A stretch of 64,000 bases of DNA from Patescibacteria group bacterium (GCA_049322575.1 JBMORQ010000027.1:87081-151080); one strand, 5' to 3'; shown: positions 7,133 to 58,709, numbered from the stretch's first letter. Translations and numbers: made by a program. The notes: generated from the sequence alone by a model not told the origin.

Positions 7133-7133
7133 T

Positions 7134-7718: not shown

Positions 7719-7730
7719 ACTATTGAAATC

Positions 7731-9419: not shown

Positions 9420-10662
9420 CCTCTTTTCCTAATCGAACAGCGTAGTTAATACCCCTGTCCCATGGGTAAATGTGTTGCATCGAAGCCCAATATAATCCCT
9501 TAATCGGTGTTCGAATAACCGGAACATTGCGACTGTGATTGGTATAGACAATTGGCTGCGCAAATGGCGCTTTGTTCAACCATACTTTATTAACAATTTT
9601 ACCAACACTTGGGTTAATCTTCTTCAAATACGGCAAATACTTTTTAAATAACTGTTCTTTTGATAATGAGAAATCCTTATCCGCCGACTCCAAATATTTG
9701 GCAACGTACAATAAATGTTTCTTATTATATTTGCTGGAATCAACCATCGAGGTATGTTCAACCAAAGCTAAAAATGGCCAACCTTCTTCATTGATGTTTA
9801 ACCAGTATGTGCCATCTTGGAAAAAGGGTTCGATTAATTGAAGTATTAGGGTTTGAGCAGCTAAAGAATCTAATTGATTGATCGATTTGGCAAATTTCGA
9901 TGGTAGATTTTTAACTAGGTTTGTCAGTAGTGTGGCCGGTCCGGTAACAATAACCCTGTCGAAAATTTTTCCACCAATCAGGAACATTCCTCGATCATTC
10001 TTTTCTATGGAATCAACTTCGAAAGCAAAATTCAGCTCGACTCCTTTTTTCTTTAATGCTGAACTTAACAATTCTGCCAGCCTAAGAAACCCACCCTGGA
10101 AGTAAGCCAAATTTTTTGTACGTGAAACAACCCGTGCCCAAAACCATGCCATATTGACAACCGATGAGTATTTGCCAAATTTACCAACAAATAATGGCTT
10201 CCACACCACTTTCCAAGCGCGAGAACCCATGGTTTTTTTTATGAATTCCTTAGCCGTCCACTTCTCAAGAAACTTTCCCCACGGAAACAAGACTAAAAAG
10301 AACAAAACAACGCCCATACGTAATCTATCCAGGATGCTTATCTTGGAGAACTTGAGTAGCGATGTGGCAGAATCTAAACGCCAGATTTGTCCATCGTACA
10401 AAGTAGACGTTTTGGTTTGATAAATATTGAGCCGCTCAGCGGCCCCCAGTTCTTTCATCAAGGAAATAACATCATGATCTGAGGTAAAGAGATGATGATA
10501 GTGGTTTTCCAAACTCCAATCCCATCTCTTTTCTTTAAAACCAGCTGCCAAACCACCAGCAAAGCTCTCTCTTTCAAAGAGCACAATGGAATGCCCCTCT
10601 TTCACAAGCTCCCAAGCTGCAGAGAGAGCTGTAAATCCTGCCCCAACAATTGCAATTGTCAT
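9385..10662 (-). CDS. NAD(P)/FAD-dependent oxidoreductase (amine-oxidase / phytoene-desaturase-like fold)
   Basis: N-terminal dinucleotide-binding fold IAIVGAGFTALSAAWELVKEGHSIVLFERESFAGG (GxGxxG...E...GG). Confidence 0.7.
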   Translation of the reverse strand: MTIAIVGAGFTALSAAWELVKEGHSIVLFERESFAGGLAAGFKEKRWDWSLENHYHHLFTSDHDVISLMKELGAAERLNIYQTKTSTLYDGQIWRLDSATSLLKFSKISILDRLRMGVVLFFLVLFPWGKFLEKWTAKEFIKKTMGSRAWKVVWKPLFVGKFGKYSSVVNMAWFWARVVSRTKNLAYFQGGFLRLAELLSSALKKKGVELNFAFEVDSIEKNDRGMFLIGGKIFDRVIVTGPATLLTNLVKNLPSKFAKSINQLDSLAAQTLILQLIEPFFQDGTYWLNINEEGWPFLALVEHTSMVDSSKYNKKHLLYVAKYLESADKDFSLSKEQLFKKYLPYLKKINPSVGKIVNKVWLNKAPFAQPIVYTNHSRNVPVIRTPIKGLYWASMQHIYPWDRGINYAVRLGKEVAHIVNEDQFN

Positions 10663-41630: not shown

Positions 41631-42196
41631 ATAATTAATGCATCTATGCTGAGAACACTTATGACACTCGTATGTATAGTTGATTTTATTGAGATATGAT
41701 ACTATTAACCAGTCTTATAAAGACATCATATACTAGCTTGCGGCCAAGGTCATATCTGGCGGTAAGTTTAAAATTGCTAAGTCAATCAGGCTGAGTTCTC
41801 TCTTGAACTTTGTCGCTAACAGCCTGGTGGTATGTAAGTGGTGTGTATATGAATGTCTTATAAGAGTGAGTATAATGACGTTGCCTTCGAAACAAGTGGG
41901 TGAAAGTGTATTCTATGAACAGTGAGATTCAAAAAAAAGAAGCATTGAAACAAAGGCTCGAGTCCATCTCCGAGCAACTTGACCTTAAATACCAGCCCCT
42001 TGAACAATTCATTGCCCAGCTTGATAGCGAAAGCAGAATTCCTCTTGCGATCGGCATACAACTTGCAAAATCATTCGAATCAGCTCTTGCCCTACTTAAC
42101 CCTGAAGATATTAAACTCATTGCACAAGTAGTTGATAAGGCTTTCTCAGTTTCAAGAAAAATAGAGGATATTCAACTCTTCTTGCAAACCCTAGAA

Positions 42197-43984
42197 ATGC
42201 CTAGATTGAATACTGCCAAGGCAATTGCCAGTTTGATCCTGTTGGTTTCATTCTTAAGCGGCTGTTTGAGCCCTGGCGCTTCGGCTCAGGAAAACCCAAC
42301 CAACACCAACGGGCCAAGAGTTACTGAGACAGCACAAGTGCAGATGCCAACTGAAACTAACGTGGATCCAACTGGTACAAATAGCGATCCAACCGCTGAC
42401 AACCCGACTGTACCGGTGAGCCCGGAGGCAGCGGCGACTGGTACAAACTCACCCACTGAGACAGCCTCCCCCACATTTACAGTAGCTCCAATAGAGGTCG
42501 GTCCTCTTCCAACCGAGGTAACAGGTCCGGAAAACCTATCTGTAGCTAGACTTGCTGTCACATATACAGGACTATCAAATCTATGGGGTGGAAATAAAGA
42601 GGCTCTTGAGAAGGAAAAATTATCAATATGTCTTCCCATTTATAAGGAAGTGGCCTTGGAAATTAAGGGAAGCGAATACATTAACAACTATTACATTACG
42701 GATTGCAGGGGCGACGGTGCTCCCATGTTTGTAAATAGTGAAGGTCAAGAGATTGATGCTAAAAGTTATTTTGCTCTCTACCATGACATAGACATCAGCA
42801 AAGTTGGCAATATCATTCCCGTAACCGATATCAATCAGATTAATCTTGGCATAGATGATAGACTAACAGTTTTTCTTACTAATTCAGAACCAGTTACTTA
42901 TAGAGGCATCGACGGTATTGGAAATCCTCTCAGACTCGTACCAAATCGCGGAAAAGATGCTGGAACAATCCCTGAATTTTATATTGTTGATGCATTAGTT
43001 AGAGTCGATGGCATAGCTGCAGATGGCTCTATCTTTCGAACTGATCTTCTTCGCTGCCAATATGACGCAACCCGCAACGTAGCCCCAGTTGTAGTCGTAA
43101 TTGACGGACAAAACCGTTTTGGGAAAATTGATCAGTCAACGGGTGAAATCACTGCTTATTACGCAAACGGTGTGTGGGTTGACATCGCATACGAGGATAC
43201 TGAACCAACACAGGTAGCTGCTGTGCCAACGCAAACTAAAATATCAGCAACTGAAACTTCAGGTGCAATGCATATTGATATGGCAACAGCTGGCAATATG
43301 ACCACACTAACTTGGGGGGAGGGGTTAAACCTTAACATGCAAACTCTTCCTGGAGTTGAGATTGGACCTGGACCAAAAGCTAACATGCAACCCATAAAAG
43401 GTCATGAAGGACTTTATTCCGTTTGGGGAAATTATGGAAAAGAGTTTCACTTTACAAAAGACCCATTAACATTTAACTACGTTGACGAACAAGGAAGAAA
43501 TATCACAGCTATAATTTTTGAACTAGCGGAAACAACATTTAAAGATATTGATAAAAAATCTCAAGAATCATATGTTTCTACTCAGTTACTTGCTTATGAT
43601 GAAGATGGATATGTTACAAGATTAATTCTTTTAGCACAGGGAATAGATTTAGATAATTATCCTGCCGTTAATAATTTAACTTCAAAAGAAGAAAGAATGA
43701 AAGCTATTAATGGACTAATAAAATCGCTTAGTTCAATAAACTATTCTACAAGCACTAGGAGAACGGGGTTGGGAGAAGACTTCGAATACCACCCCAATGA
43801 TCCAGAACGTTTCATGGAATTTGTTGTTAGCAACAGTAAAATTCAGAAGGCAATCACCAACATACTGACTTCTGGAGCCGGTGGTTTGGGAGATAATAAT
43901 CTAGAACTAATCAAACAAGCTATTGAAGCAGGAATACTTATCCCGAGCAATGAGTTGGAAGGCCAAGTCTTGAATATAAAATAA
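42197..43984 (+). CDS. Surface lipoprotein of unknown function. The lipobox start at 42197 is preferred; the ORF track extends in frame to 41900.
   Basis: MPRLNTAKAIASLILLVSFLSGC has a signal peptide plus LSGC lipobox, followed by a Thr/Pro/Asn-rich linker and a domain of about 480 aa with no motif I recognise. Confidence 0.6.
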   Translation: MPRLNTAKAIASLILLVSFLSGCLSPGASAQENPTNTNGPRVTETAQVQMPTETNVDPTGTNSDPTADNPTVPVSPEAAATGTNSPTETASPTFTVAPIEVGPLPTEVTGPENLSVARLAVTYTGLSNLWGGNKEALEKEKLSICLPIYKEVALEIKGSEYINNYYITDCRGDGAPMFVNSEGQEIDAKSYFALYHDIDISKVGNIIPVTDINQINLGIDDRLTVFLTNSEPVTYRGIDGIGNPLRLVPNRGKDAGTIPEFYIVDALVRVDGIAADGSIFRTDLLRCQYDATRNVAPVVVVIDGQNRFGKIDQSTGEITAYYANGVWVDIAYEDTEPTQVAAVPTQTKISATETSGAMHIDMATAGNMTTLTWGEGLNLNMQTLPGVEIGPGPKANMQPIKGHEGLYSVWGNYGKEFHFTKDPLTFNYVDEQGRNITAIIFELAETTFKDIDKKSQESYVSTQLLAYDEDGYVTRLILLAQGIDLDNYPAVNNLTSKEERMKAINGLIKSLSSINYSTSTRRTGLGEDFEYHPNDPERFMEFVVSNSKIQKAITNILTSGAGGLGDNNLELIKQAIEAGILIPSNELEGQVLNIK

Positions 43985-44059: not shown

Positions 44060-44737
44060 ATGAATCGAACAAGGTTCTTCGTTGTAATATTGTTTGTCTC
44101 GTTATTGATTACTTCCTCTGTTGTCATTTTAAAAATTCTAAATAGACGAAGCACTGGTTACCCTCAAAAAAACCAGCAGTCTTTGGATTTCAGGTTATCT
44201 GATTACAATAAAAAAACTATTGTTGATCAGAGAGGTGATATTTTTATTTCAACAATAGCTTTTACCGGGATTGAAGAGCTAATGATGCCAGTAGATATTG
44301 GATCTGCGGAGATTCCAATCGTTTACAAAGGATATATTTCCTCTGGAGAAACAAAACGAGTAATTCAGATAGCAGCCGTTGTAAGAAGTAAGAGTGATTC
44401 CCAGAAACACTTCTACTGTGTTATTGGCATATCATGCACGGAAACAACCAGCTGGTCTAGCGCAGTTGATTCTAATATATTGAAACGTCTGTTCAAAATG
44501 GCGGCAAAGAACGATTCAACAAAACAGCTACCAGAATCAAGCGGATTATTACACCTTCAGTTGGGTATACCATCTAATCAATATACCGAGACTCAAACAA
44601 TAATACCCCTGTCACAATATTTATTAGAAATATATTCAAAAGATGATTTTAACAATTTCTATCAAAAACAGGATTATTCATATATCGAAAAACAGGGAAT
44701 AATAATCCCTATTTCTATAGCTTTTGAAAAGATTTAG
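44060..44737 (+). CDS. Hypothetical membrane-anchored protein (N-terminal TM), AT-rich gene
   Basis: MNRTRFFVVILFVSLLITSSVVIL TM anchor. Its stop codon abuts the ATG of the downstream gene (tagatg). Confidence 0.5.
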   Translation: MNRTRFFVVILFVSLLITSSVVILKILNRRSTGYPQKNQQSLDFRLSDYNKKTIVDQRGDIFISTIAFTGIEELMMPVDIGSAEIPIVYKGYISSGETKRVIQIAAVVRSKSDSQKHFYCVIGISCTETTSWSSAVDSNILKRLFKMAAKNDSTKQLPESSGLLHLQLGIPSNQYTETQTIIPLSQYLLEIYSKDDFNNFYQKQDYSYIEKQGIIIPISIAFEKI

Positions 44738-47509
44738 ATGAGAACAAAATATATTATTTTTTTGACTTTCCTATTTTTATATTTTTTCTGTTTTTACAAA
44801 GACGTAACTGCTGATGCAAGGTGTGGGATTGGTTCGTATTGTTCAGATAGCACCGGCGGTGAAGTAGTTACACAATGTTTTTGGAATGGTGCTTACTGTG
44901 AAAATTATAGATGGCACTGGGAGGCTGCAGATTGTAGCGGTAGCCCTACTTGCTATGATAGTGATTTTCCAAGCGGAGAATGTCCCGGATTACCTCCCTC
45001 AGGCACAAGTAAAGTCTATAGCTGTCCAATTGGAAATGGGGAAAATGATCATTTATGCGCAGGTTGTGACCCTTATGCTGTAGTAGACCTTGACGCACAA
45101 ACTCCAGAATCTAACTTCTGTACTGTTGGAGCTTATACCGATGTATGTAGTTGTCTTCCACAAAATGTCTCATGCGGTCCGCCCACAGGAAATGGCATGT
45201 GGTGCTGCCTCGCCGACGACGTCACCCCCACCCCCGGTGGTGGTGGCGGGCCAGGACCCACCACCCCTCCAGCTGCTCCCAACGATCCAATCGGTTATCA
45301 CGATGCCGTCAACTGTAACGGAGAGCAGATCTGGGGTTGGGCCTGTGACCCAGACAACTACAACGCGACTTTGCAGATCGACATTTACATAGACGGCAAT
45401 TATGTACCGCCAACCATCGCAAATCTCAATCGTCCAGACATTGCTGGTGTTTGTGGCGGTACCACTAACCACGGTTTCACTTACACCATCCCAGAGCAAT
45501 ACCGCGATGGTAACTGTCATTCGGTTCAGGCTTATGCACTCAACGCTTCTGGCACCCCAGGCAACAATTTTGGCTTAACTAACTCACCTAGAACTCTCTG
45601 CGGTTGTTATACCAACAAGAGTTGTACCATCAGCTTGTCTGGATCTAATCAGATAGTCTATAGTGGTTCACAAGTTGGCCCTGTTTTCCAGGTTGTTGCT
45701 TCTTCCGCCGAAACATATGACACATCGCATCTCTATATCATGCGTGATACCAACTCAGTGATCAGCCCAGCGCCGCTGTATTCAATAGATTCTGATCCAT
45801 ATCAAACCATGTCAACCGTTGTTGGTGGTTTGTACTACTATTACAACTCTCCTGTTTGTCACCCAAGTTTTGGCAATGCTTGCTCCTTTGGCGTCACTCT
45901 CAGCAGCCTGCCACCTGGCCGCTATGCCGCCTTTTGTGACGTCAGTGATAGTACAAACGGCAGCGACAGCTGTTCAGGTAATCCAAACTGTACCTTCAAC
46001 TCTTCAAGTTATCTCAGTCTCAGCTGTACCGGTTTCCGCGACTGTTCAAACAGTGACTGGACGACTTTTACCGTTGTCACACCATCTCCGAGTCCCACGC
46101 CAACTCCAACACCCAGTGCTTCGCCTACACCCAGCTCCACACCCACCCCAACTCCTACGCCGGCGATCCAAGGTTTCTTCTATGAGGAAACTGGCAGTAC
46201 TTTTATGGGTTCGGTTATTTGCTCAGATTTAAGTGGCATAACTCCTGCCCCGGTAGCACTTAGTAACTCAGTCGGTGGCATTTCAGCACATCGCACCAGT
46301 CCGGCAGGGGATTATGCTGGAGTGATTAGTAGTGATCGATTTAGCATCAATACTCCAGATAGTTCAGCTAACAACTATTCAGTTACTCTTGATCTCAATG
46401 GGCAAACTGATCCGTCCAACACCTGGGTCTGTTCTTGTCCACAAACTGTTGGCGGGGATCCTTTCGTTTGCCAATATCATGATGATATTCTCGGAATAGG
46501 TGGTAACCAGAAAAATGTGCCCTTTTTCTTAACAAACTACAACCTCAGCAACATCAGCTGGTGGCAAGTTGCTGGTGGCAACACTTATGCCCGTAATGTG
46601 ATTCGTTCACAAGTTCCATACGATATATGCAACCCAGAAAGTACTTGCTATGCCGGCCTGATGGCTGGTCTGCCTTGGAATAATAGCATTAGCAATACTG
46701 CTGGTTTCCCTCTGGTAGGCCAGGGTGGATCAATCATCACCAGCGATGACGGCACAAATTACATTCATGCGCCAGGATCAAGAAACCTAGCCGAACAGGG
46801 TAGAGGAATCGGCATTAGCTTGCCAAGAGAGGATTATGCTTATTTCTACGAACGGTTTGGTGCATCGGCTACACCATTAGGGGGTACTAATCCCAATAAA
46901 CCAGCCTCTGGTAGCTACATCACTAGTGGTTCAATTACTATCAACGAAACTAATTCTTGGTCTGTCTCCAGTGGCGAATCAATCGTTGTTTTCGTCAACG
47001 GCAACTTAACCATTGACTCCGCCTCAGCCGACACTAGGCTTACCCAAGTGGCCACGGGCGGTTATCTGGCATTTATCGTCGCCGGGAATATTACGATTGG
47101 TGATAGAGTTGGTTACTCAGATCCTCTGACTGATGCCACCCAACCAACCAATACCAATCTCGAGGGTGTGTTTATTGCCGACGGCACGATTACCGTTGCC
47201 AGTGATAACAATGCAACCACCATCGACAACAAATTTATTGCAGCTGGTACATTTGTAGGCTGGGGAGGTGTTAACCTTCAGCGTACTTATGAAGATGGCA
47301 GTTTAGGTGCGGCTAATAATAATCTGAGTCCGACCGAAACCTTTATTTTCCGCCCAGATCTGGTTGTCAACACTCCTGCATCAATGCGCTCGGCCCAATT
47401 CACCTGGCAAGAAATTAACCCCAGCTTTAACACCTTTGAGAGCCAGCCTCCTGTGGTCACCCCTACCGAGGAAGACCACATCGGTCCACCGGGCGGAAAT
47501 GTCATCTAG
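44738..47509 (+). CDS. Large (923 aa) Cys-rich secreted protein, a candidate pilus-associated adhesin. It has a signal peptide, Cys-rich N-terminal modules, a PT linker and a beta-helix-like C-terminal region.
   Basis: Signal peptide MRTKYIIFLTFLFLYFFCFY. More than 40 Cys in the first 600 aa. Linker TPSPSPTPTPTPSASPTPSSTPTPTPTP. Repetitive segment GNLTIDSASADTRL..GNITIGDRVG. Its 3' end overlaps the next pilin ORF. Confidence 0.6.
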   Translation: MRTKYIIFLTFLFLYFFCFYKDVTADARCGIGSYCSDSTGGEVVTQCFWNGAYCENYRWHWEAADCSGSPTCYDSDFPSGECPGLPPSGTSKVYSCPIGNGENDHLCAGCDPYAVVDLDAQTPESNFCTVGAYTDVCSCLPQNVSCGPPTGNGMWCCLADDVTPTPGGGGGPGPTTPPAAPNDPIGYHDAVNCNGEQIWGWACDPDNYNATLQIDIYIDGNYVPPTIANLNRPDIAGVCGGTTNHGFTYTIPEQYRDGNCHSVQAYALNASGTPGNNFGLTNSPRTLCGCYTNKSCTISLSGSNQIVYSGSQVGPVFQVVASSAETYDTSHLYIMRDTNSVISPAPLYSIDSDPYQTMSTVVGGLYYYYNSPVCHPSFGNACSFGVTLSSLPPGRYAAFCDVSDSTNGSDSCSGNPNCTFNSSSYLSLSCTGFRDCSNSDWTTFTVVTPSPSPTPTPTPSASPTPSSTPTPTPTPAIQGFFYEETGSTFMGSVICSDLSGITPAPVALSNSVGGISAHRTSPAGDYAGVISSDRFSINTPDSSANNYSVTLDLNGQTDPSNTWVCSCPQTVGGDPFVCQYHDDILGIGGNQKNVPFFLTNYNLSNISWWQVAGGNTYARNVIRSQVPYDICNPESTCYAGLMAGLPWNNSISNTAGFPLVGQGGSIITSDDGTNYIHAPGSRNLAEQGRGIGISLPREDYAYFYERFGASATPLGGTNPNKPASGSYITSGSITINETNSWSVSSGESIVVFVNGNLTIDSASADTRLTQVATGGYLAFIVAGNITIGDRVGYSDPLTDATQPTNTNLEGVFIADGTITVASDNNATTIDNKFIAAGTFVGWGGVNLQRTYEDGSLGAANNNLSPTETFIFRPDLVVNTPASMRSAQFTWQEINPSFNTFESQPPVVTPTEEDHIGPPGGNVI

Positions 47510-47549
47510 CCTCGGCGCGTCGTATCGTTTGGCAAAAGTCAACTTAACC

Positions 47550-48116
47550 ATGATCCAACAACAAAAGCAAACCAATCTATCTCTGCATGGCCACCAAATA
47601 AAAACGGCGAATCAAGCGGGATTTACGGTGATTGAGCTCTTGATCGTTACTCTACTTTCAGTAATGTTGATGATGGCTGTGTCGACGGTTTTCATGACCT
47701 TCATGCTTAATAGCGCAAAACTGAGCATCGAACAATCAATCAAGGCCGAGGGTAGCCACACAGTTGACCAAATTGCCACAATTCTACGTAATGCCAGAAC
47801 CATAGAAAGCTGCACCACTGACATGGTCTCCGTAGTAGTTAGAGATGTTGACGACCAACAACTCCAGATCTACACAACTCCATCCTTGAACGGAGAACAT
47901 CGTATTGCTGTCCGTAACTTAACCACCAACACCACTAAGAATTTCACCTCAGCCGACAACACCATCACTCCAAGTTTGAGGTTTAACTGCTTTTCAGATG
48001 ACAACTCAACCTTTGTTAGCTATAGCTTTGGCCTGAAACGCGGCCCTGGTATAGAACCAGATCGCGATACCGCTATAATCAATTTTTCCGGCAGTGTCGA
48101 AATGAGAAATTTATAA
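47550..48116 (+). CDS. Type IV pilin-like protein (prepilin-type N-terminal cleavage/methylation domain). Alternative starts are at 47499 and 47364.
   Basis: ANQAG|FTVIELLIVTLLSVM class III signal. Confidence 0.7.
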   Translation: MIQQQKQTNLSLHGHQIKTANQAGFTVIELLIVTLLSVMLMMAVSTVFMTFMLNSAKLSIEQSIKAEGSHTVDQIATILRNARTIESCTTDMVSVVVRDVDDQQLQIYTTPSLNGEHRIAVRNLTTNTTKNFTSADNTITPSLRFNCFSDDNSTFVSYSFGLKRGPGIEPDRDTAIINFSGSVEMRNL

Positions 48117-49237: not shown

Positions 49238-49630
49238 CTAGAGATTGGTCACACAATATTCTTCAGCGGTTGACTCCAAGGTAGCACAGACTGAGAAAGT
49301 GGTACCAGCAGATGAGTACTCATATACTCCGTCCTTAGGATCGGCAATATTTGTATCACTAAGGTAATCACGAATGTCTTCAAGCATGGAACTAAAGCTA
49401 CTTCCGACGGGATAACTACCTTGGTCAGCTCGGTACATCGTTAGAGCTTGACGTACTGATTCTAGGTCTGTCTTACGCTTGGCATCTCTGCTGGTGATGC
49501 CTGCATTGCGATAACTAACCATACCGACAGCCGTTAGCACGATCATGATCGTGGCCACGACCAACAATTCAATCATGGTGAAGCCTGCCTGGCGAGTGGT
49601 TATTCGATCTTTTAAGCTATTCTTTGACAT
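49238..49630 (-). CDS. Type IV pilin. The start is taken at MSKNSLK (49630) rather than the ORF-track start at 49720.
   Basis: TRQAG|FTMIELLVVATIMIVL. Choosing 49630 removes the overlap with the upstream pilin gene. Confidence 0.75.
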   Translation of the reverse strand: MSKNSLKDRITTRQAGFTMIELLVVATIMIVLTAVGMVSYRNAGITSRDAKRKTDLESVRQALTMYRADQGSYPVGSSFSSMLEDIRDYLSDTNIADPKDGVYEYSSAGTTFSVCATLESTAEEYCVTNL

Positions 49631-49640
49631 AAACACCTCT

Positions 49641-50063
49641 CTATTGCAGGCTCTGCAGACAGTAGTATGTACCAGAACCAAATGAGCAAGTACCATTGGC
49701 CTGAGGAACATTGTTAGCATTTCCTGCGGTCGTGTCCTCTAGCTCGGCGCAGACACAATATGAGTCGGAGTCAGCCACACAACCATATGTGCCGGTCTTT
49801 GGATCAACAGGCACCACATTGCCGGGGAAGTCACCTCCAGCATACATGGTGTCACAGGCTGCGTAACTGCCTTCGTGGGAGGCATAATACTGCTCAAAGC
49901 CATCTTGAATCGCCTTGATATCACCGCGTCGACGGGCATCCCGACCCTTGCGTTGGGCCGTAGAAAAAGCCACACTGCCAATAATAATCAAAATACCAAT
50001 AATCGAAATCACCACAAGTAACTCGAGTAAAGTGAAGCCTTTTTGACTGCGTTTTTTGATCAT
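49641..50063 (-). CDS. Type IV pilin (PilA-like)
   Basis: MIKKRSQKG|FTLLELLVVISIIGIL with a 9-aa leader. Confidence 0.8.
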   Translation of the reverse strand: MIKKRSQKGFTLLELLVVISIIGILIIIGSVAFSTAQRKGRDARRRGDIKAIQDGFEQYYASHEGSYAACDTMYAGGDFPGNVVPVDPKTGTYGCVADSDSYCVCAELEDTTAGNANNVPQANGTCSFGSGTYYCLQSLQ

Positions 50064-50080: not shown

Positions 50081-51097
50081 CTAATTTGTCACGGTTATAT
50101 TAACCTTTGCCAAGACATTGCTTGCTGAGGTGGTACCTCGAGCGTTTTTGGCTTCAATAACGGTCTGGTAATTGCAACTTGGACCTCCACAAGTATAAAC
50201 ATGCTCGGCGCTACCCTGCAAGTCGGTAAACTGGGCTTGCTGACCGTCACCATAATAAAGCGTGATAGTAGTGCCACCTTTCACTTCAACTTTTGAGTCA
50301 GCTGACATAAAACTTTCCAAAAATGTCAGCATTGTGTAAATCACACCATCCATGCCGTTGAGCTGCTGTCCAAGATCTTCGCTAGTTTGATTGTCACTCG
50401 CCATGTATGAAAAAGTCACCAATTCGCCAGAGTGAACAGTTAGATTACGTGTTCTTGTGTCAAAAAAAGGATTAGTGTTAAAAGACAGAACCACTGGCCT
50501 CGACAAGCAACTTTGATAACAAGACTTTGGACAATCTGTCACGCCCAATAACTGATCACCATCTCCCAGCTCAAAGTCATCCATGCAACACTGAAAACCA
50601 AAACCTCCACAACTGGCGGTTGGCCCTGGCGGAATGGTAGACTCAAGGCTATCTCCATACACAGATTTTATTTGCTTTCCCTCAACTATGACCATTGCTT
50701 TTCTACCTAAAACTGAAAGCGTAACACCACTTAACTCACTGTCCCAAATAATGCCTGATTTACCAGGTTCTTTTTTGATGAAAGGCTTGAGTTTGACCGT
50801 CTCGATCTCAATCGGACTGAGCCGATACTGACTGCAAATCGCCTCGATGACGTATTCATTATCAGATATGAAACGCAACTGAAAACTCACCAAATCGTCA
50901 TCGGCTGATGAGCCACCCATCAACAAGCATTCGTTGACATAGGAGCCATTGTTTTCAACTAACTTAATCCTGTTTAAGCCCTGCTTTACTTGATTTACAC
51001 CGATAAAGAGCATTACCTCGCGCATCACTAACGAAATTACTATTCCAAACAAAGTCAGAGTCACAAAGAAACTAAAGAAGAATCTTAAGATACGCAT
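50081..51097 (-). CDS. Membrane-anchored protein of unknown function, inside the pilin operon. Cys-containing extracytoplasmic domain.
   Basis: N-terminal TM (FFFSFFVTLTLFGIVISLV). Cys cluster SCGGFGFQCCMDDF..DCPKSCYQSC. Lies between pilD and the pilin genes. Confidence 0.5.
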   Translation of the reverse strand: MRILRFFFSFFVTLTLFGIVISLVMREVMLFIGVNQVKQGLNRIKLVENNGSYVNECLLMGGSSADDDLVSFQLRFISDNEYVIEAICSQYRLSPIEIETVKLKPFIKKEPGKSGIIWDSELSGVTLSVLGRKAMVIVEGKQIKSVYGDSLESTIPPGPTASCGGFGFQCCMDDFELGDGDQLLGVTDCPKSCYQSCLSRPVVLSFNTNPFFDTRTRNLTVHSGELVTFSYMASDNQTSEDLGQQLNGMDGVIYTMLTFLESFMSADSKVEVKGGTTITLYYGDGQQAQFTDLQGSAEHVYTCGGPSCNYQTVIEAKNARGTTSASNVLAKVNITVTN

Positions 51098-51208
51098 ATC
51101 AAGATCATAGACTTATAAAAATAAGTATATCTTAAATTTTGCTTAAACATCTAGGGGTAATGCTAGAGTAACTGATACACATGAATAGTGTTTTCTTGAG
51201 AGATAAAG

Positions 51209-51267
51209 ACTTTTGTGGCACTCTATGCCAGTTTTGTCATAAAAGTGTTGTTTCACTTCAAGTCTAT
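51209..51267. repeat. Degenerate copy E of the MITE-like repeat
   Basis: agacttttgtggca...cagttttgtcataaaagtgttgtttcacttcaagtcta. Confidence 0.4.
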
Positions 51268-51311
51268 TGTGCTACAAAGCTTGTGTCTGTAGCAAAAGCC
51301 AAAAATGAAAC

Positions 51312-52133
51312 TCATACTGAGATTAGGTGCATATACCAATCCCAAATCTGATTTCCCCAAAGTAAAGCAATCGTCGTGCTTATAACTAAAAAGGGTCCAA
51401 AAGGCACCACCTGACCAAGTTTTTTCTTTTTTAGAACTAACAACACAACTCCCACCAGTCCTCCCAACAGAAATGATAGAAAAATCGCCACTAAGATTTT
51501 TGGCCAGCCCAGAATTAAGGCCAAGGGAACAGCTAGCTTCACGTCGCCAAATCCAAAACCCTTACCCTTGGTGAAAAACCACAAAGAGTAGAAAAATGCT
51601 ACTAAGCCAACCATACAAAAAACAGCAATTGCTAAATCCTCAAACCTCATCACCCCCAATATCACCAAAGCAAAGCGATAGAGTAGGGTGATAAACGTCA
51701 GCAAACCCACAGCTAGATCAGGAATTATATAGTACTTGAGGTCAGCCACCAGAATCACCAACAAGAGAATTGCCACGATTAGCCAAAAGAAGGGCTGTAC
51801 AAGATGCAGTGGTTGAGTTGTTAAACGGAAAAACAACGAGCCAGCCCAAAACCACCAGACAAACAAAGAACCGGTTAATAACTCTACTACCGGATGGATG
51901 ATGCCTATCGGTGCACGACAATTTCTACAACGCCCAGCCAGTACTAAAAAAGAAACTAAGGGAATATTGTCGAACCAAGCAATTTGTTTTTGGCATTTTT
52001 CGCATTTTGAGCGACCCGCTACCCACGACTCACCCTCAACCGTACGGTAAACAAAAACATTTAAAAAACTGCCTATTGAAGCACCTAAAAAAAATAAAAA
52101 ACCACTAACCAACAAAAACACTGGATCAAACAT
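51312..52133 (-). CDS. pilD: Prepilin peptidase (A24 family, PilD/TadV-type) with an N-terminal zinc-binding CxxC...CxxC
   Basis: CEKCQKQIAWFDNIPLVSFLVLAGRCRNCRAPI followed by multi-TM peptidase A24 core helices. Confidence 0.85.
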   Translation of the reverse strand: MFDPVFLLVSGFLFFLGASIGSFLNVFVYRTVEGESWVAGRSKCEKCQKQIAWFDNIPLVSFLVLAGRCRNCRAPIGIIHPVVELLTGSLFVWWFWAGSLFFRLTTQPLHLVQPFFWLIVAILLLVILVADLKYYIIPDLAVGLLTFITLLYRFALVILGVMRFEDLAIAVFCMVGLVAFFYSLWFFTKGKGFGFGDVKLAVPLALILGWPKILVAIFLSFLLGGLVGVVLLVLKKKKLGQVVPFGPFLVISTTIALLWGNQIWDWYMHLISV

Positions 52134-52258
52134 AAACTTAGTATATTAGACTTTAAAGTAAATACAAACAAGCGGTTGAGTTTTTTTTAAGAATCGGCAA
52201 AAAACTAGAGAAAACCTAAGGACAAAGCTGCTCAACCAAAAGCTTAACAAACAAAAAA

Positions 52259-52279
52259 CCCCGCCGAAGCGGGGTTTTA
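52259..52279 (-). terminator. Rho-independent terminator downstream of the major-pilin gene (bidirectional hairpin)
   Basis: ccccgc-cgaa-gcgggg flanked by A-run and T-run. On the minus strand it reads aaaaccccgcttcggcggggtttttt. Confidence 0.65.
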
Positions 52280-52298
52280 TCAACAAATTTTAAAACTT

Positions 52299-52904
52299 TT
52301 ATGGCAAGCAGATCATTTCTGTTGTCCAGTCAGCTACAGCTGGAGCTGTGTAATCAGCGCCATCAACACAGGCACCTGCCGGCAAACTGGCATTTGTACC
52401 ACAAGCCTTCATCGCCTCAAGTTTGAACTGATTTGAGGATGGGGTGAAGCAAACCGAGATATCACCGTCTTCTGGCTTAATTAGATTCAACACGTTATTA
52501 GCACTCGTGCCATTTAACTGATCGATAAATGATTGCTTTACTTCTTCGGTGTCAGCAAGTAACTGCAACCATGTTGGCTCTGTTGAGTCTCCGCCAATCG
52601 TACAATATCCATTTACAATGGTAAGACAAGTTGCGCTGCCGTCAAAAGGGTAAAGGGTAGCAGGCAAATTATCCTCTCCTTGATTCCATGGATACTCCTC
52701 CTGAATTGCATAGTAACGATCGATAGCATTGAGCAACTGGGCAGCGTTAGAACGAAGCCTGGTGTCACGACCCTTGTTAATTTGTTCGATTGGGTTAATC
52801 GAAGCCAAAACAGCCACGGCTAAAACACCAATCACGGCAATAACCACCAGAAGCTCAATCATGGTAAAACCAGCTGACCTTCTGAGGTGAGATAGTAATT
52901 TCAT
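52299..52904 (-). CDS. pilA: Type IV pilin, candidate major pilin. The start is taken at MKLLSH (52904), downstream of a strong SD, rather than the ORF-track start at 52919.
   Basis: MKLLSHLRRSAG|FTMIELLVVIAVIGVLAVAV. Has its own terminator and a 280-bp upstream intergenic region. Confidence 0.8.
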   Translation of the reverse strand: MKLLSHLRRSAGFTMIELLVVIAVIGVLAVAVLASINPIEQINKGRDTRLRSNAAQLLNAIDRYYAIQEEYPWNQGEDNLPATLYPFDGSATCLTIVNGYCTIGGDSTEPTWLQLLADTEEVKQSFIDQLNGTSANNVLNLIKPEDGDISVCFTPSSNQFKLEAMKACGTNASLPAGACVDGADYTAPAVADWTTEMICLP

Positions 52905-52910
52905 ATATTC

Positions 52911-52918
52911 CTCCTCCA
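52911..52918 (-). promoter_or_regulatory. Shine-Dalgarno sequence (GGAGGAGG) of the major pilin gene
   Basis: Minus-strand read gttGGAGGAGGaatatATGaaattacta. The ORF-track start codon ATG at 52919 lies inside this SD. Confidence 0.55.
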
Positions 52919-53200
52919 ACTTTTTCTGTTTACACTTTACACTACTTCCACAACTCGACGCAAGAGTTTATTTTGCCTTCAGTTTTGTCCTAAATTTGGA
53001 TAGTCTTCTCTCGAAATAAAAATTACTGGTAAAAAACTAATTTCGACAGTGCAAAGATGATCCTGGCATGACAAAAACTATTTTTATTCAATAGACTTGC
53101 TGTGGAATAAGATTTTGAATAGAAAAAAATACTACGCAGAAAGTCTGATTTTTACAGCAAGTAGTTGAACAAAAAAAACAAACCGGGCAGTAAAAGAGCC

Positions 53201-54403
53201 CTAGAATTGCGAAGTTAAATTGTAGATCGGCATAATAATGGCGATCACAATCATTCCTACACCAACACCCAAGACAATCATAATCATAGGCTCCAAGGCT
53301 GTTGTTAGGTTTTTGATAGCGTGCTCACTTTCTGATTCAAAATATGCTGAGAGTTTAAGCAAAATGTCGGTCAGTTTACCTGTTTCCTCACCCACAGCCA
53401 CCATCTGATTGAGAATAGATGGGAAAATTTCATGGCGTGCTATCGCCTGCGATAAAGCGACACCCTTCTCAACTCGCTTAGCTGATTCCTTGATAGCCTC
53501 ACGGTAGGTAACGCTCGTCATGGCCTCACCAACTACCTCCAATGCCTCAAGCAATGAAACACCGGCTCCAAGTAGCAGGGCCAGGGTACGGGAGAACTCC
53601 GTCAAAATGATCTTGGTGCGAACAGATCCATAGATCGGTACTTTTCCCAACCAACCATCAATGATCCGATCTCCGACCTCGGTCTTTTTCCAACTGCGCA
53701 GTGCCGAGAAACCTAGCACACCCAAACCAATAAAAACATACCAATAAGTGGACATTACATTTGAAACAGAGATAAGAATTTGGGTGGGAAGTGGCAAATC
53801 AGCTCCAAAATCTTTGTACATCGCCGTTAGCTGGGGAACGACAAAAACCATCATTACAAATGCCACTGCAACCATTGCCAAGACAATTATTACTGGATAA
53901 ATCAAAGCTCCCTTGGTTTTTTCACGAAACTCCTTGTCTTTCTCCATGGTATCTGCTAAACGTTGCAAAACTCCATCCAACATACCTCCAACTTCACCAG
54001 CCCTTACCAGTTGAATATAAACGCGAGAGAACGTTCCATTGGCCTTCTCCAGAGCTGTAGAAAAAGTACCTCCACCCTCGATTTCTTTTAGGAGATTTCC
54101 AATCAAGCGCCCCATCTCAGTTGTGCTTTGTTCTTCAAGAATCGACAGAGCTGTTGCCAAGGGAAGACCAGCATTTATCATGGTTGCTAGCTGACGAGTA
54201 AAGTTCACCAAATCACCATGCTTGATACCGCCTAGGATACTTTTCAAACCAAGAAAGCTCTCCTCACCAAGTGGCTTGACACTAATCACTAGTAAGTGGC
54301 GCTCCCCTAAAACGGCTGCTGCCTGGGATTGGGAAGAGGCCTCGACTTTTCCCTTAATCGGCTCTCCCAATTCATTTTTGGCGGTATATTTAAAAATTGG
54401 CAT
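53201..54403 (-). CDS. pilC: Type IV pilus platform protein PilC (GspF family)
   Basis: 400 aa. Two GspF-like repeats and 3 TM segments. Sits adjacent to pilT and pilB. Confidence 0.85.
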   Translation of the reverse strand: MPIFKYTAKNELGEPIKGKVEASSQSQAAAVLGERHLLVISVKPLGEESFLGLKSILGGIKHGDLVNFTRQLATMINAGLPLATALSILEEQSTTEMGRLIGNLLKEIEGGGTFSTALEKANGTFSRVYIQLVRAGEVGGMLDGVLQRLADTMEKDKEFREKTKGALIYPVIIVLAMVAVAFVMMVFVVPQLTAMYKDFGADLPLPTQILISVSNVMSTYWYVFIGLGVLGFSALRSWKKTEVGDRIIDGWLGKVPIYGSVRTKIILTEFSRTLALLLGAGVSLLEALEVVGEAMTSVTYREAIKESAKRVEKGVALSQAIARHEIFPSILNQMVAVGEETGKLTDILLKLSAYFESESEHAIKNLTTALEPMIMIVLGVGVGMIVIAIIMPIYNLTSQF

Positions 54404-54433
54404 ATTTTTTTACCTTCGTTAACCAACCCGTTG

Positions 54434-55489
54434 CTAACCACCGAGCAAACGATGCATCTCCTCGGGTCGGAACGATTTAGCAATTGCTGTGTCCTTGGTA
54501 ATTATTCCTTGTTGAACCAATTGCATGAGGTGGTTCTCGATCAGCATCATGCCTCCCACAGCTGACGTCTGGATCACATTGTCAATCTGGTGGGCCTTGG
54601 CTTCTCGGATCAAATTGCGAATGGCGCTATTGGCCACCATAATTTCAAACGCCGCAAAACGCCCTCCGTCCACTCTTGAAACCAGACGCTGAGACACAAC
54701 CATCTTGATCGTGCCAGCCAACTGTTGACGGATCTGTCCTTGCTGATTGGCTGGAAAAACATCGATCATACGATCGATTGTCTGAGCGGCAGTAGCCGTA
54801 TGCAGAGTGGCAAAAACCAAATGACCAGTTTCGGCGATAGTAATAGCCGAGGCAATGGTTTCGTAGTCACGCATTTCACCAACCAAAACCACGTCTGGGT
54901 CCTCCCGCAAAACCGAGCGCAGAGAAATATCCCAGCTATTGGTGTCTTGATTTATCTCACGTTGTGAAATAACGCTTTGTTTGGGTGTGTAAACAAACTC
55001 TATTGGATCCTCGATAGTTACAATGTGGTCAGGGCGGGTGGCATTAATTTCATCGATAACCGCTGCCAGAGTTGTTGATTTGCCTTCTCCCGTGGGACCA
55101 GTGACCAAGATTAGACCTTGATTGAACTGACTGACCTGATGAAAGATCGGCGGCAAACTCAACTCATCAATACTTTTAATGCGTGCAGGAATCAAGCGCA
55201 AAGCAGCCGAAAGATGACCCTTGGCGTGATAGACATTGACGCGGAAACGACCTTGATCGCTAAATTGATAACCAAAATCCAGTTCCTTGTTCACTTTTAC
55301 GTAATCACGCTGGTTCTGAGACATGAGTGGAAAAATCAAGGCTTTGGCACCCTCATCATCAAGAGGGGTCATGCCTTCAACAGCAGCCAAACGACCATCG
55401 ATACGAATCATGGGTGGACTGCCAACCACGATGTGTAGATCTGAGCCTCCTTGAATTACTAGCATTTGTAAAATGTCTTGAATTTCCAT
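54434..55489 (-). CDS. pilT: Twitching-motility retraction ATPase PilT
   Basis: LVTGPTGEGKSTTLAAVIDEIN Walker A, Asp box, and AIRNLIRE. Confidence 0.9.
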   Translation of the reverse strand: MEIQDILQMLVIQGGSDLHIVVGSPPMIRIDGRLAAVEGMTPLDDEGAKALIFPLMSQNQRDYVKVNKELDFGYQFSDQGRFRVNVYHAKGHLSAALRLIPARIKSIDELSLPPIFHQVSQFNQGLILVTGPTGEGKSTTLAAVIDEINATRPDHIVTIEDPIEFVYTPKQSVISQREINQDTNSWDISLRSVLREDPDVVLVGEMRDYETIASAITIAETGHLVFATLHTATAAQTIDRMIDVFPANQQGQIRQQLAGTIKMVVSQRLVSRVDGGRFAAFEIMVANSAIRNLIREAKAHQIDNVIQTSAVGGMMLIENHLMQLVQQGIITKDTAIAKSFRPEEMHRLLGG

Positions 55490-55490
55490 A

Positions 55491-57683
55491 TTAAACCTCC
55501 GCCACTCTCTTAACCTCCTCGATGGTAGTTAGACCATCAAGTGCCTTGATATAACCGTCTTGCTTCATAAAAAGCATACCATTTTTTACTGCCACTTTCT
55601 CGAGGTCGCCCGCAGGGCGTCGTTCCATAATTAAATGACTGATTTCCTCAGTAATTTTCATGACCTCGTAAATACCAATACGTCCCTTGTATTCCGGTTC
55701 AGTGTGAGGACGATCCTCCTTTGGCCTAAAAAGGGTTATCTCATCAGGTTTTTTGTTATGTTGCTTACACCAACTATCAAATTTTTCTCCTAAGACTTGT
55801 TTAACATCGTTTATCACTGCCTCGTCTGGCTTATATTCCTCGCGATAATCCTGATTGATTTTTCTCACCACACGCTGAGCCATAGCTAAAGTCATTGATG
55901 ATGCAAGCAAAAAGGGCTCAGCTCCCATATCGAGTAAACGAGGCAAAGCACCGGCTGCAGAGTTGGTGTGCAGGGTAGAGAACACTAAATGCCCTGTTAA
56001 AGATGCCTGGATAGCAAGCTCAGCAGTTTCACTATCACGAATCTCTCCAACCATGATGATGTTGGGATCCTGACGCAAGAAAGAACGTAAACCGTTGGCA
56101 AAAGTCAGACCAGCCTGAGGATTAATTTGCACTTGGTTAACACCTGGCACCTGATACTCAACCGGATCCTCAAGAGTCATGATGTTGACCTTGGCGGTAT
56201 TGATAATGTGTAACACAGAATATAAGGTAGTCGTCTTACCTGAACCGGTTGGACCTGTGACCAAGACAATTCCATGCGGAACTTTTATGGCTTCCCGTAA
56301 GTCTCGTAAAGCCATGCCGGTTAGGCCAAGTTCTTCCAAGGTAGGGGCAGCTACGTCTTTTTTAAGCAACCGCATCACGACTTTTTCACCATGAATGGTG
56401 GGTAGGGTAGAGACACGCAAATCAACTTCTTGGTTATCACTCGCGTAGTTAAAGCGTCCATCTTGAGGGATACGTTTTTCATCAATCTTGAGGTTGGTTA
56501 AAATCTTAATACGAGAAACCACCGCGTCATGGACCGTCTTTGGCAAGATCAGACGCTCAGTTAAAATGCCATCGATGCGATAGCGCACCCTAGTGCGACC
56601 AATCAATGGCTCAATATGAACATCCGAAGCCCTGGATCGCATCGCAAAATCCAAAATCGTCTCTACAATGCGGTTAATTGGGGCAGCTCTAACTACGCCT
56701 CCAGATAACTCAGATAGATCTTGTTGCTGGCGACGACGCTCAATTTCTTGAGGTGCTTCTTGCAAAGCTTGGGTAACTTCAGATGAGAGATTCTGTGAAT
56801 AGCGCTCAGCAATTACTCGGTCTAGCTCTGAGGGCATAGCATAGAAGGGAATGATCTCGCAACCAGTTTTTTGACGAATAAAATCAATCGCCACCAAATC
56901 CATGGGGTTTTCCATGGCGACATTGAGGCTATTGTTCTGCTTATCCCAAGCAAAAGGGAAAAGTTTGTAACGCCTGGCTACGCTTTCATCGACCTTATTA
57001 ATCGCCTCAGGCGACATACCCGTTTCAGAAATTTTAATGTAGGGTATGTTATAGATTTCAGCCTTCGCCTTAGTGATTGTCTCCTCACTGACCTGCTGCT
57101 GATCTCGAAGGATATCCTCGATTGCTTTGCCGGTGCTTAAATGTTCTTGGTTGATTTTTACAACGTCTGCCTGGCTAAGTAAGTTCTTTTCGAGCAATAC
57201 CTCAACGACAGTTTTCTGACCCACAGTGTTGCTCTGTCCGTCCGAGTCAGAAGCCACCTTGGGGTTAGTTGGAGACGATGTACTAACCAAATTGCCTACC
57301 TCTGATTGACCTGGGTTCTGACTTGAATCTGCTGATGTCTGACTGGATTGGTCAACGATTACCACAGGCGCATCCGCACTTGCCCCGGCCGACTCCAACT
57401 GAGTAGCAATATTTTCTGAAAGACTCTCAACTTCCTCTGGAGATATTGATTGGTTACCTGCCGCCATATCCAACCCCAGACCAAGACCCTGACTTGATTG
57501 AGGTAGCTGATTAGATTCTGTAGAACCAGTAACACTAATCTGCTCTGAAAATTCCGAACCAGAGGGATCCGAGACCGAAGAACTCATCGAAGGAGCTAAA
57601 ACAGATGAAACAACATTTCCTCCCATAGATGGAGGACTAATCGGAGGCACCTTGACTGGTGAGTTTTGGACAGGCTCAGTCAT
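55491..57683 (-). CDS. pilB: Type IV pilus assembly ATPase PilB (GspE family) with an N-terminal Ser-rich disordered extension of about 170 aa. The start is uncertain; the ORF track gives 57743.
   Basis: GIVLVTGPTGSGKTTTLYS Walker A. T2SSE_N-like LLEKNLLSQADVVKI. The N-terminus SPPSMGGNVVSSVLAPSMSSSVSDPSGS... is low-complexity. Confidence 0.85.
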   Translation of the reverse strand: MTEPVQNSPVKVPPISPPSMGGNVVSSVLAPSMSSSVSDPSGSEFSEQISVTGSTESNQLPQSSQGLGLGLDMAAGNQSISPEEVESLSENIATQLESAGASADAPVVIVDQSSQTSADSSQNPGQSEVGNLVSTSSPTNPKVASDSDGQSNTVGQKTVVEVLLEKNLLSQADVVKINQEHLSTGKAIEDILRDQQQVSEETITKAKAEIYNIPYIKISETGMSPEAINKVDESVARRYKLFPFAWDKQNNSLNVAMENPMDLVAIDFIRQKTGCEIIPFYAMPSELDRVIAERYSQNLSSEVTQALQEAPQEIERRRQQQDLSELSGGVVRAAPINRIVETILDFAMRSRASDVHIEPLIGRTRVRYRIDGILTERLILPKTVHDAVVSRIKILTNLKIDEKRIPQDGRFNYASDNQEVDLRVSTLPTIHGEKVVMRLLKKDVAAPTLEELGLTGMALRDLREAIKVPHGIVLVTGPTGSGKTTTLYSVLHIINTAKVNIMTLEDPVEYQVPGVNQVQINPQAGLTFANGLRSFLRQDPNIIMVGEIRDSETAELAIQASLTGHLVFSTLHTNSAAGALPRLLDMGAEPFLLASSMTLAMAQRVVRKINQDYREEYKPDEAVINDVKQVLGEKFDSWCKQHNKKPDEITLFRPKEDRPHTEPEYKGRIGIYEVMKITEEISHLIMERRPAGDLEKVAVKNGMLFMKQDGYIKALDGLTTIEEVKRVAEV

Positions 57684-57733
57684 CACTAAAGCTCTACAAA
57701 GACAAACAAGCCAAGAAAAGCTTGTTCGGCTAA

Positions 57734-57786
57734 CTCGTAGCAAAATCTTATCTTGAAATAGTTCTGTTTATTCGCTACAAGTCTAA
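57734..57786. repeat. Degenerate copy F of the MITE-like repeat in the pilB/holB divergent spacer
   Basis: ...gaaatagttctgtttattcgctacaagtctaataat. Confidence 0.4.
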
Positions 57787-58619: not shown

Positions 58620-58709
58620 AATCTATTAAAAACGGTCTTTAACGAACTTGCCTAACCAAAATGATGTTTGAAATTGACTCTTAAGTGTGATACAAAGAAT
58701 CTCTTAATT

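Follow-up and report, generated by a model that had tools for sequence, protein, structure and literature searches.

Type IV pili (T4P) are nearly universal in Patescibacteria and are needed for host attachment in the few cultivated members; the host-recognition molecules are largely undescribed (PMC11623550). What, then, might such a pilus present to a host cell? This question is raised by a 64,000-nucleotide (nt) stretch of DNA from a Patescibacteria group bacterium (GCA_049322575.1, JBMORQ010000027.1:87081-151080), hereafter the window, in which positions are counted from the first letter. At 44060-48116, three genes lie in tandem on the plus strand, encoding a small membrane protein of 225 amino acids (aa), a 923-aa secreted protein with Cys-dense modules and a pilin-like protein. 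On balance, we favor the reading in which the 923-aa protein, exported by Sec and not itself a pilin, forms part of the T4P tip and carries variable adhesion modules, i.e. a PilY1-like solution made from a ComZ/PilX-like domain. An earlier note on this DNA had proposed a novel pilus-tip adhesin module. The fold, the synteny and the class of the adjacent pilin all speak for that proposal, tip location and adhesion are its conditional part, and the word novel holds only in a relative sense, because the protein family is very large and because solenoid tip subunits and non-pilin tip adhesins are already established.

The C-terminal domain is predicted to be a β-solenoid like those of pilus-tip subunits

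An AlphaFold2 (AF2) model of the 923-aa protein was built from an alignment of 62 sequences. The model is confident in the C-terminal part only, with values of the predicted local distance difference test (pLDDT) above 90 over residues ~700-850 and of 70-88 over a β-sandwich at residues ~475-600. When the model of the C-terminal domain was submitted to Foldseek, FfIBP was matched at an E value of 7e-4. The next-best structural match in the PDB was ComZ, a subunit of the Thermus pilus tip; tapirin, an adhesin linked to T4P, was also among the matches. ComZ carries a solenoid whose closest relative is FfIBP, binds a neighboring pilin and fits only at the pilus tip (PMC6561018). All cyanobacterial PilX proteins have the same ice-binding-protein-like solenoid, proposed to act as a tip plug that replaces PilY1 (bioRxiv 10.64898/2026.02.12.705559).

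The C-terminus had earlier been described as resembling a β-helix, and the GxxTI/NxTI repeats behind that description are found at residues 731, 755, 783, 816 and 825 of what is now predicted to be a β-solenoid. No known enzyme family lays claim to the protein: searches of Pfam and NCBIfam returned nothing significant, and searches of PDB sequences with profiles of the protein family returned nothing.

The domain defines a large family with divergent N-terminal regions

Full-length searches gave few relatives, and the part that the relatives have in common with the 923-aa protein is its last ~290 residues. A profile of this domain (C-domain) retrieved 56 proteins from a word-indexed database and, in an exhaustive search, 4,007 cluster representatives (clusters counted at 50% identity), 846 of them at E values below 1e-30. 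The proteins with this C-domain make up a very large Patescibacteria family that has no name and of which Pfam DUF7305 (PF23981) detects a part. DUF7305 covers the solenoid turns and weakly matches 24 of 62 family members at E <0.01 (best 7e-9, 36 bits); most member matches lie below its 27-bit gathering score, which is passed by the relatives P0020 (29.5 bits) and P0030 (36.3 bits). In the literature searched, we found no paper that mentions DUF7305 and none on Patescibacteria that contains both 'pilus' and 'solenoid'.

Among 168 members with a full domain, the C-domain sits at the extreme C-terminus of the protein (median tail, 0), behind N-terminal regions that range from 62 to 1318 aa. Cys residues occur at 5.5 per 100 aa in the N-regions, compared to a median of zero in the C-domain. 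None of the 168 has a prepilin motif in its first 45 aa. Domains of the F5/8 type C, Big_2 or SdrD-B type occur in some relatives. Within the same pairs of proteins, C-domain and N-region identities are 96/82, 85/53, 82/49 and 76/36%; judged by these identities, sequence change is much faster in the N-region.

Family members end in a W-x-E-x-x-P motif (47402-47422 in the window), and in 133 of 167 of them its Trp is placed exactly 6 residues before the C-terminus. Such a terminal motif brings to mind a signal for docking or sorting. The 923-aa protein departs from the pattern through its 28-aa extension, being one of 3 distinct proteins with a tail of more than 10 aa past the C-domain.

The N-terminal half is Cys-rich and modular

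We judged the leader of the 923-aa protein by inspection. Its N-terminus, MRTKYIIFLTFLFLYFFCFYKDVTA↓DARCG (the arrow marks the predicted cleavage site), is Sec-like, as the earlier note had suggested, and resembles the start of every homolog inspected; a similar hydrophobic leader opens all 31 homologs encoded in the related loci described below. In the NCBI gene model, the protein (P0001) starts at Met154, is 770 aa long and omits both the signal peptide and the first Cys-rich module (44738-45199). The full 923-aa reading frame is the better gene model, because every inspected homolog opens with a signal-peptide-like leader followed by Cys-rich sequence.

The Cys-dense modules reported previously are present, and the Cys-rich string quoted for them is located at residues 28-74, but the count of more than 40 Cys was too high. 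The protein has 37 Cys, or 36 without the signal peptide. Thirty of these are in three modules within residues 26-446 and four in residues 475-600; only two are in the C-domain, none of them in the solenoid core. The Pro/Thr linker, TPSPSPTPTPTPSASPTPSSTPTPTPTP, is exactly 28 residues long, as reported.

Copies of the second module (residues 183-290, GYHD..C....WGWA.D...), 33-42% identical and in some cases several per protein, are found in large surface proteins that are otherwise unrelated (DUF11-repeat, LamG/RHS, PA14 and β-helix proteins). We found no Pfam model that covers this module of ~105 aa.

The adjacent gene encodes a core minor pilin

The pilin-like reading frame extends from a TTG to the stop codon at 47364-48116 (plus strand). 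Whether the gene overlaps the 3' end of the 923-aa gene, as had been stated, depends on the start codon chosen. The NCBI model (P0209, 205 aa) begins at ATG 47499 and overlaps by 11 nt, whereas a start at ATG 47550 gives a 24-aa leader, lies 40 nt past the stop codon of the 923-aa gene and abolishes the overlap. The processing motif is QAG↓FTVIELL. Gly-1, Phe+1 and Glu+5 (G24, F25 and E29) are invariant in alignments of 15 and of 24 orthologs, in which a Cys88-Cys147 pair is also kept, and the product is a genuine prepilin. Neither of the two outcomes that the earlier note had named as refuting its proposal, assignment to an unrelated enzyme family or failure of the pilin-like product as a prepilin, was obtained.

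NCBIfam searches with 15 orthologs matched HpsC in 14 cases, PpdB-type PRK10557 in 12 and ComGF in 10, with the GspJ class also indicated; these matches are weak and far under the curated cut-offs for gspJ, ComGF, PpdB and HpsC (e.g. 18.7 versus 120 bits for PRK10557). An AF2 model of the pilin (pLDDT 88) shows a classical lollipop with a GspJ-type globular fold. Its best structural matches are minor pseudopilins of the GspJ class, with Thermus TTHA1219 at the top. Based on the conserved processing site, the weak profile classes and the lollipop model, we assign the pilin to the GspJ/PilW-type core minor pilins of the priming complex. This class contacts the cap subunit in the tip complexes of type II secretion systems (T2SSs) and T4P. 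The idea of a minor pilin dedicated to delivery of the adhesin is not borne out, the pilin being instead of this core type.

The cassette belongs to a complete T4P locus

The window contains a Patescibacteria T4P superlocus, with PilB, PilT, PilC, PilD, PilM, a PilO-like protein and six pilins that all have Glu5 (Table 1). PilM and the PilO-like protein are encoded ~7 kb upstream. The locus amounts to a complete T4P system. No secretin was found in the window, and a simple pattern scan covering the window's cluster and the related loci (64 kb in the case of this genome) revealed no GspK/PilX-like pilin lacking Glu5.

The three plus-strand reading frames are all present where the earlier note had placed them. 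The TAG at 44735-44737 directly precedes the ATG at 44738-44740, and 18 bp separate the stop codon of the plus-strand pilin (48116) from the end of the convergent minus-strand gene (48135). The earlier note also took these genes to form one operon. No terminator came up between them in promoter and terminator scans, whose signals were not enriched over shuffles, and co-transcription of the three genes is a plausible reading.

Table 1. Features of the window (positions in nt unless given as aa; HMM, hidden Markov model; ORF, open reading frame; TM, transmembrane)
Feature	Position	Strand	Remarks
Small bitopic protein, 225 aa, one N-terminal TM helix (aa ~6-27)	44060-44737	+	ORF; stop abuts start of 923-aa gene
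923-aa secreted multidomain protein, candidate T4P tip plug and adhesin	44738-47509	+	
Sec-type signal peptide, aa 1-25	44738-44812	+	Predicted cleavage VTA↓DA, by inspection; lacks prepilin G↓FxxxE motif
Variable Cys-rich N-terminal region	44813-46075	+	AF2 pLDDT mostly <50
Module 1, 16 Cys	aa 26-160 of 923-aa protein		
Gly/Pro linker	aa 163-184 of 923-aa protein		
~105-aa module, 6 Cys	aa 183-290 of 923-aa protein (45284-45607)	+	Common to unrelated surface proteins
Module 3, 8 Cys	aa 294-446 of 923-aa protein		Also in some family members
Pro/Thr/Ser linker, 28 residues, aa 448-475	46079-46162	+	
β-sandwich domain, aa ~475-600	46160-46537	+	Transthyretin/SdrD-B-like
C-terminal family domain, aa 605-895 (HMM envelope)	46550-47422	+	Ends in W-Q-E-I-N-P
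Solenoid core, aa ~690-860	46805-47317	+	Predicted ice-binding-protein-type triangular β-solenoid
28-aa Pro-rich tail beyond the family's usual C-terminus	47423-47506	+	
GspJ/PilW-type core minor pilin, 188 aa from ATG 47550 (205 aa from 47499)	47550-48116	+	G↓FTVIE; N_methyl 19 bits
PilV/GspI-like minor pilin, 168 aa	48135-48641	-	TIGR02523 PilV 6.5e-7, HpsB 1.6e-5; convergent, 18-bp gap
GspH/FimU-like minor pilin, 170 aa	48670-49182	-	PRK10506 2.2e-7, GspH 1.4e-6
Two small GspG-type pilins (49238-49720 and 49641-50063)	49238-50063	-	
Remainder of T4P operon	50081-57743	-	Pfam; gene-by-gene orthology with locus L003
Conserved 338-aa membrane protein	50081-51097	-	
Prepilin peptidase PilD	51312-52133	-	
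206-aa pilin	52299-52919	-	
PilC	53201-54403	-	
PilT	54434-55489	-	
PilB	55491-57743	-	

We then compared 41 related loci (L001-L041). Of these, 38 were obtained by scanning a single genome for each species, and their record titles and content indicate that nearly all of the 38 are from Patescibacteria. The same gene arrangement surrounds P0010 (1411 aa, locus L003), a protein 27% identical to the 923-aa protein. In L003, orthologs are found gene by gene for the pilin, the PilV-like and GspH-like pilins, the two further small pilins, the 338-aa protein and the 206-aa pilin, and the prepilin peptidase occupies the same position. Orthologs of the 188-aa pilin occur in 30 of the 41 loci, mostly on the same strand and starting 0-130 bp past the family gene; those of the PilV-like pilin, the GspH-like pilin and the 338-aa protein occur in 28, 26 and 28, respectively. 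About three quarters of the 41 loci have the family gene and the GspJ-type pilin convergent on the PilV/GspH-like operon. The Saccharibacteria contributed a single weak family match (L041, 26% identity over ~160 aa).

One clade (L004-L008 and L011-L013) has the pilin ~1.4 kb downstream of the family gene; the intervening gene was inspected in L004, and in the other members it is the spacing that was measured. L004 has tandem paralogs of the solenoid family, of 625 aa (7011-8888) and 442 aa (8895-10223), ahead of the GspJ-type pilin, the shorter consisting of signal peptide, β-sandwich and C-domain only. This tandem suggests alternative or stacked tip proteins.

Several further features of the locus were noted. 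The two small pilin reading frames at 49238-49720 and 49641-50063 overlap by 80 nt as listed; the start of the former is probably an internal Met (MSKNSLKDRITTRQAG↓FTMIE, near 49630), which would abolish the overlap. The 338-aa protein, encoded between the pilins and the prepilin peptidase, has an N-terminal TM helix and a Cys-rich segment (CGGFGFQCC...CPKSCYQSC). It has no match in Pfam or NCBIfam, its orthologs occupy the same position in 28 of the 41 loci, and it seems to be a conserved part of this Patescibacteria T4P cluster for which no description exists. Beyond the cluster, the GyrB gene (937 aa, 58668-61481, plus strand) carries an intein, with Pfam Intein_splicing at residues 507-731 between DNA_gyraseB and Toprim.

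Small anchored proteins accompany the solenoid proteins

In at least 20 of 31 loci, a small ORF with an N-terminal anchor lies ahead of the solenoid gene, at a gap of -14 to +9 nt. Among these loci are L032, L035 and L038, which have no pilin genes and in which the small ORF overlaps the start of the family gene. Given these three loci, the pair formed by the small anchored ORF and the solenoid gene is more tightly conserved than its link to the pilin. The family members of L001, L002 and L021 are likewise encoded away from pilin genes.

Of the small anchored ORFs, 13-15 form one sequence family. The 225-aa protein of the window showed no detectable relation to this family by tblastn, BLASTP, HMM searches, jackhmmer or hhalign (E value of 1.3; hhalign probability of 7.6%), and no sequence relative of it was found in any related locus. 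It is a positional analog only of the small anchored ORFs elsewhere, and is probably a dedicated accessory factor. We also considered whether it might supply the pilin helix missing from the 923-aa protein, as in a 'split ComZ', and rejected this idea: it has neither Gly-1 nor Glu5, and a long α1 helix is unlikely because Pro/Gly-rich sequence follows directly after the TM helix.

Farther upstream, a 694-aa ORF (41900-43984, plus strand) has an internal Met, after which come a textbook lipoprotein signal (MPRLNTAKAIASLILLVSFLSGC) and a linker rich in Pro and Thr; its true product is probably a lipoprotein of ~590 aa. In most loci, the second gene ahead of the solenoid gene is an ORF of 500-770 aa, with homology visible within subclades only. 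The 694-aa protein has no significant similarity to its positional counterparts in the related loci. The three plus-strand genes are part of a cassette in which gene positions are conserved and the sequences of the two upstream members have diverged past recognition.

A model for the 923-aa protein, and its alternatives

From the family's architecture and fold, the class of the pilin, the synteny and the differing evolutionary rates, we infer the following course of events. The 923-aa protein would be exported by the Sec pathway, with removal of its signal peptide. Its C-terminal module (the β-sandwich, the solenoid and the W-x-E-x-x-P segment) would then dock on the globular heads of a minor-pilin priming complex made up of three pilins: the GspJ/PilW-type one encoded alongside it, and the PilV/GspI-like and GspH/FimU-like ones from the convergent operon. 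There it would take the distal position held elsewhere by GspK/PilX/ComZ or by PilY1, a placement suggested by the fold, by the synteny and by what appears to be a lack of any GspK-type pilin. PilB would polymerize the major pilin beneath, so that the complex is carried out on the tip of the fiber. The disulfide-rich, linker-separated and fast-diverging N-terminal modules would project outward and bind a target, most likely the surface of a host cell.

A broader proposal is more tentative, and we consider it possible rather than probable. It holds that many Patescibacteria have replaced the GspK/PilX cap with a helix-less, Sec-exported solenoid plug, bound non-covalently and equipped with hypervariable disulfide-rich receptor modules, together with a dedicated small anchored partner encoded directly ahead of it, and that tandem or dispersed paralogs serve as interchangeable tips.

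Several observations weigh against a tip role for the 923-aa protein. It lacks the α1 helix of a pilin, unlike ComZ and PilX, and its attachment would therefore have to be non-covalent, as for PilY1. The relationship to ComZ and PilX is seen at the level of the fold only, since the sequence profile searches of the PDB were empty. The 923-aa protein itself has no DUF7305 match at E ≤0.1, and its Cys-rich N-terminal half is poorly modeled by AF2. The apparent absence of a GspK-type pilin was judged from a simple pattern scan, which for this genome took in 64 kb. Finally, no pilin is found nearby in 10 of the 41 loci (L001, L002, L009, L021, L032, L034, L035, L038, L039 and L041), some of which are short contigs.

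The missing helix and the ten unlinked loci also lend weight to a different reading, in which the protein is a cell-surface or released adhesin, or another host-interaction protein, under shared regulation with the pilus genes but no part of the fiber, perhaps held at the envelope by the upstream anchored protein. The persistence of the anchored ORF and solenoid gene as a pair in L032, L035 and L038 points the same way, as does the fact that large Cys-rich extracellular proteins are general in genomes of the Candidate Phyla Radiation (PMC4736985). This reading gives no reason for the sharing of the protein's best-conserved part with ComZ and PilX, both tip subunits, for the position of the gene immediately ahead of a GspJ-type pilin in most loci, across clades down to 27% identity, or for the apparent lack of a cap pilin in the cluster. 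We regard it as unlikely, while taking it seriously.

The protein could instead sit at the tip as a DNA receptor for competence, like ComZ, rather than as a host adhesin. The DNA-binding lysines of ComZ are located between its pilin domain and its solenoid (PMC6561018), and the pilin domain is missing here. Moreover, hypervariable disulfide-rich modules, together with the lectin-type domains of relatives (F5/8 type C and Big_2), are a better fit to variable surface ligands, and a role in DNA uptake seems to us highly improbable.

Even less probable, in our estimation, is that the protein is released cargo of a pilus machinery that acts as a T2SS-like secretion or wall-crossing device. Such a role would be in line with the Sec signal peptide and the pseudopilin-like (GspH-, GspI- and GspJ-like) neighbors, and T2SS substrates are sometimes encoded beside the system. 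On the other hand, there is no secretin in the window, Patescibacteria are not known to have an outer membrane, the cluster includes the PilT retraction ATPase typical of true pili, and substrates do not normally have a conserved domain in common with tip subunits. Least credible of all is a β-helix enzyme (a polysaccharide lyase or hydrolase acting on the host envelope) or a true ice-binding protein: the enzyme reading is rejected for lack of a family match in Pfam, NCBIfam and PDB sequences and of conserved catalytic-type residues, with invariant positions across the family occupied for the most part by Gly, Pro, Trp or a hydrophobic residue, a single Arg among them, and no conserved acidic or His cluster in the alignment, and adhesins commonly have the ice-binding-protein fold, as does ComZ, without any function connected with ice (PMC6561018).

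Significance and comparison with known systems

The family provides a testable candidate for a host-specificity determinant in Microgenomates/Paceibacteria-type lineages. If the broader proposal of cap replacement is true, the solenoid family would be the main determinant of which hosts these episymbionts attach to. The analysis also corrects a public gene model that lacks the signal peptide and the first module.

Proteins related in fold or function fall into several groups. ComZ (Thermus thermophilus, PDB 6QVI) and the PilX/HpsA-type proteins of cyanobacteria are, like the 923-aa protein, encoded beside GspJ/GspI-like minor pilins. They have been proposed to serve as a tip cap or plug (PMC6561018; bioRxiv 10.64898/2026.02.12.705559), and an ice-binding-protein-like triangular β-solenoid is found, or in our case predicted, in both. 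ComZ and PilX are pilin-like: they have a hydrophobic N-terminal α1 helix of class III (prepilin-like), and their solenoid is an insertion that separates the penultimate from the final strand of a GspK-like pilin fold. In contrast, the 923-aa protein has a Sec leader (the model shows a helix at residues 2-20 only) and no detectable pilin helix, and ~580 residues of Cys-rich modules and linkers precede its C-terminal solenoid. Sequence searches revealed no similarity between them.

PilY1/PilC of proteobacterial type IVa pili resembles the 923-aa protein in having a Sec signal peptide, in not being a pilin and in having its gene among minor-pilin genes. Its conserved C-terminal domain is thought to dock on minor pilins, leaving a variable N-terminal region for adhesion or sensing. 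That domain is a seven-bladed β-propeller (PF05567), to which the 923-aa protein has no Pfam match; the C-terminal fold of the latter is a predicted β-solenoid.

For Saccharibacteria, the tip adhesins proposed to bind the host are large proteins that are encoded in T4P loci and lack signal peptides of the PilD type; deletion of pilX2 impairs host binding (PMC11623550). PilX1 and PilX2 of Nanosynbacter lyticus TM7x are large, lack a predicted PilD signal, have accessory domains and are candidate tip adhesins for binding to the host (PMC11623550). They are described as having lollipop pilin folds with a C-terminal jelly-roll or β-propeller, whereas the 923-aa protein has a solenoid and no evident pilin fold.

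The ice-binding proteins of the IBP-1/DUF3494 type have the fold predicted for the C-terminal domain of the 923-aa protein but no sequence similarity to it (12-16% aligned identity, no Pfam match), and the context here is a pilus locus, not cold adaptation. The tapirins of Caldicellulosiruptor are a much weaker structural match, have another architecture and bind cellulose.

Non-pilin tip adhesins (PilY1), solenoid tip pilins (ComZ and PilX) and large Saccharibacteria tip proteins without a PilD-type signal are all known as concepts. In the literature searched, we found no description of a C-terminal solenoid in a helix-less Sec protein combined with hypervariable Cys-rich modules, a small anchored partner and a Patescibacteria family of this size. 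Seen beside these systems, the 923-aa protein would extend the emerging idea of the solenoid as a tip plug, raised for Thermus and cyanobacteria, to a third and very different architecture, in which the solenoid lies outside a pilin.

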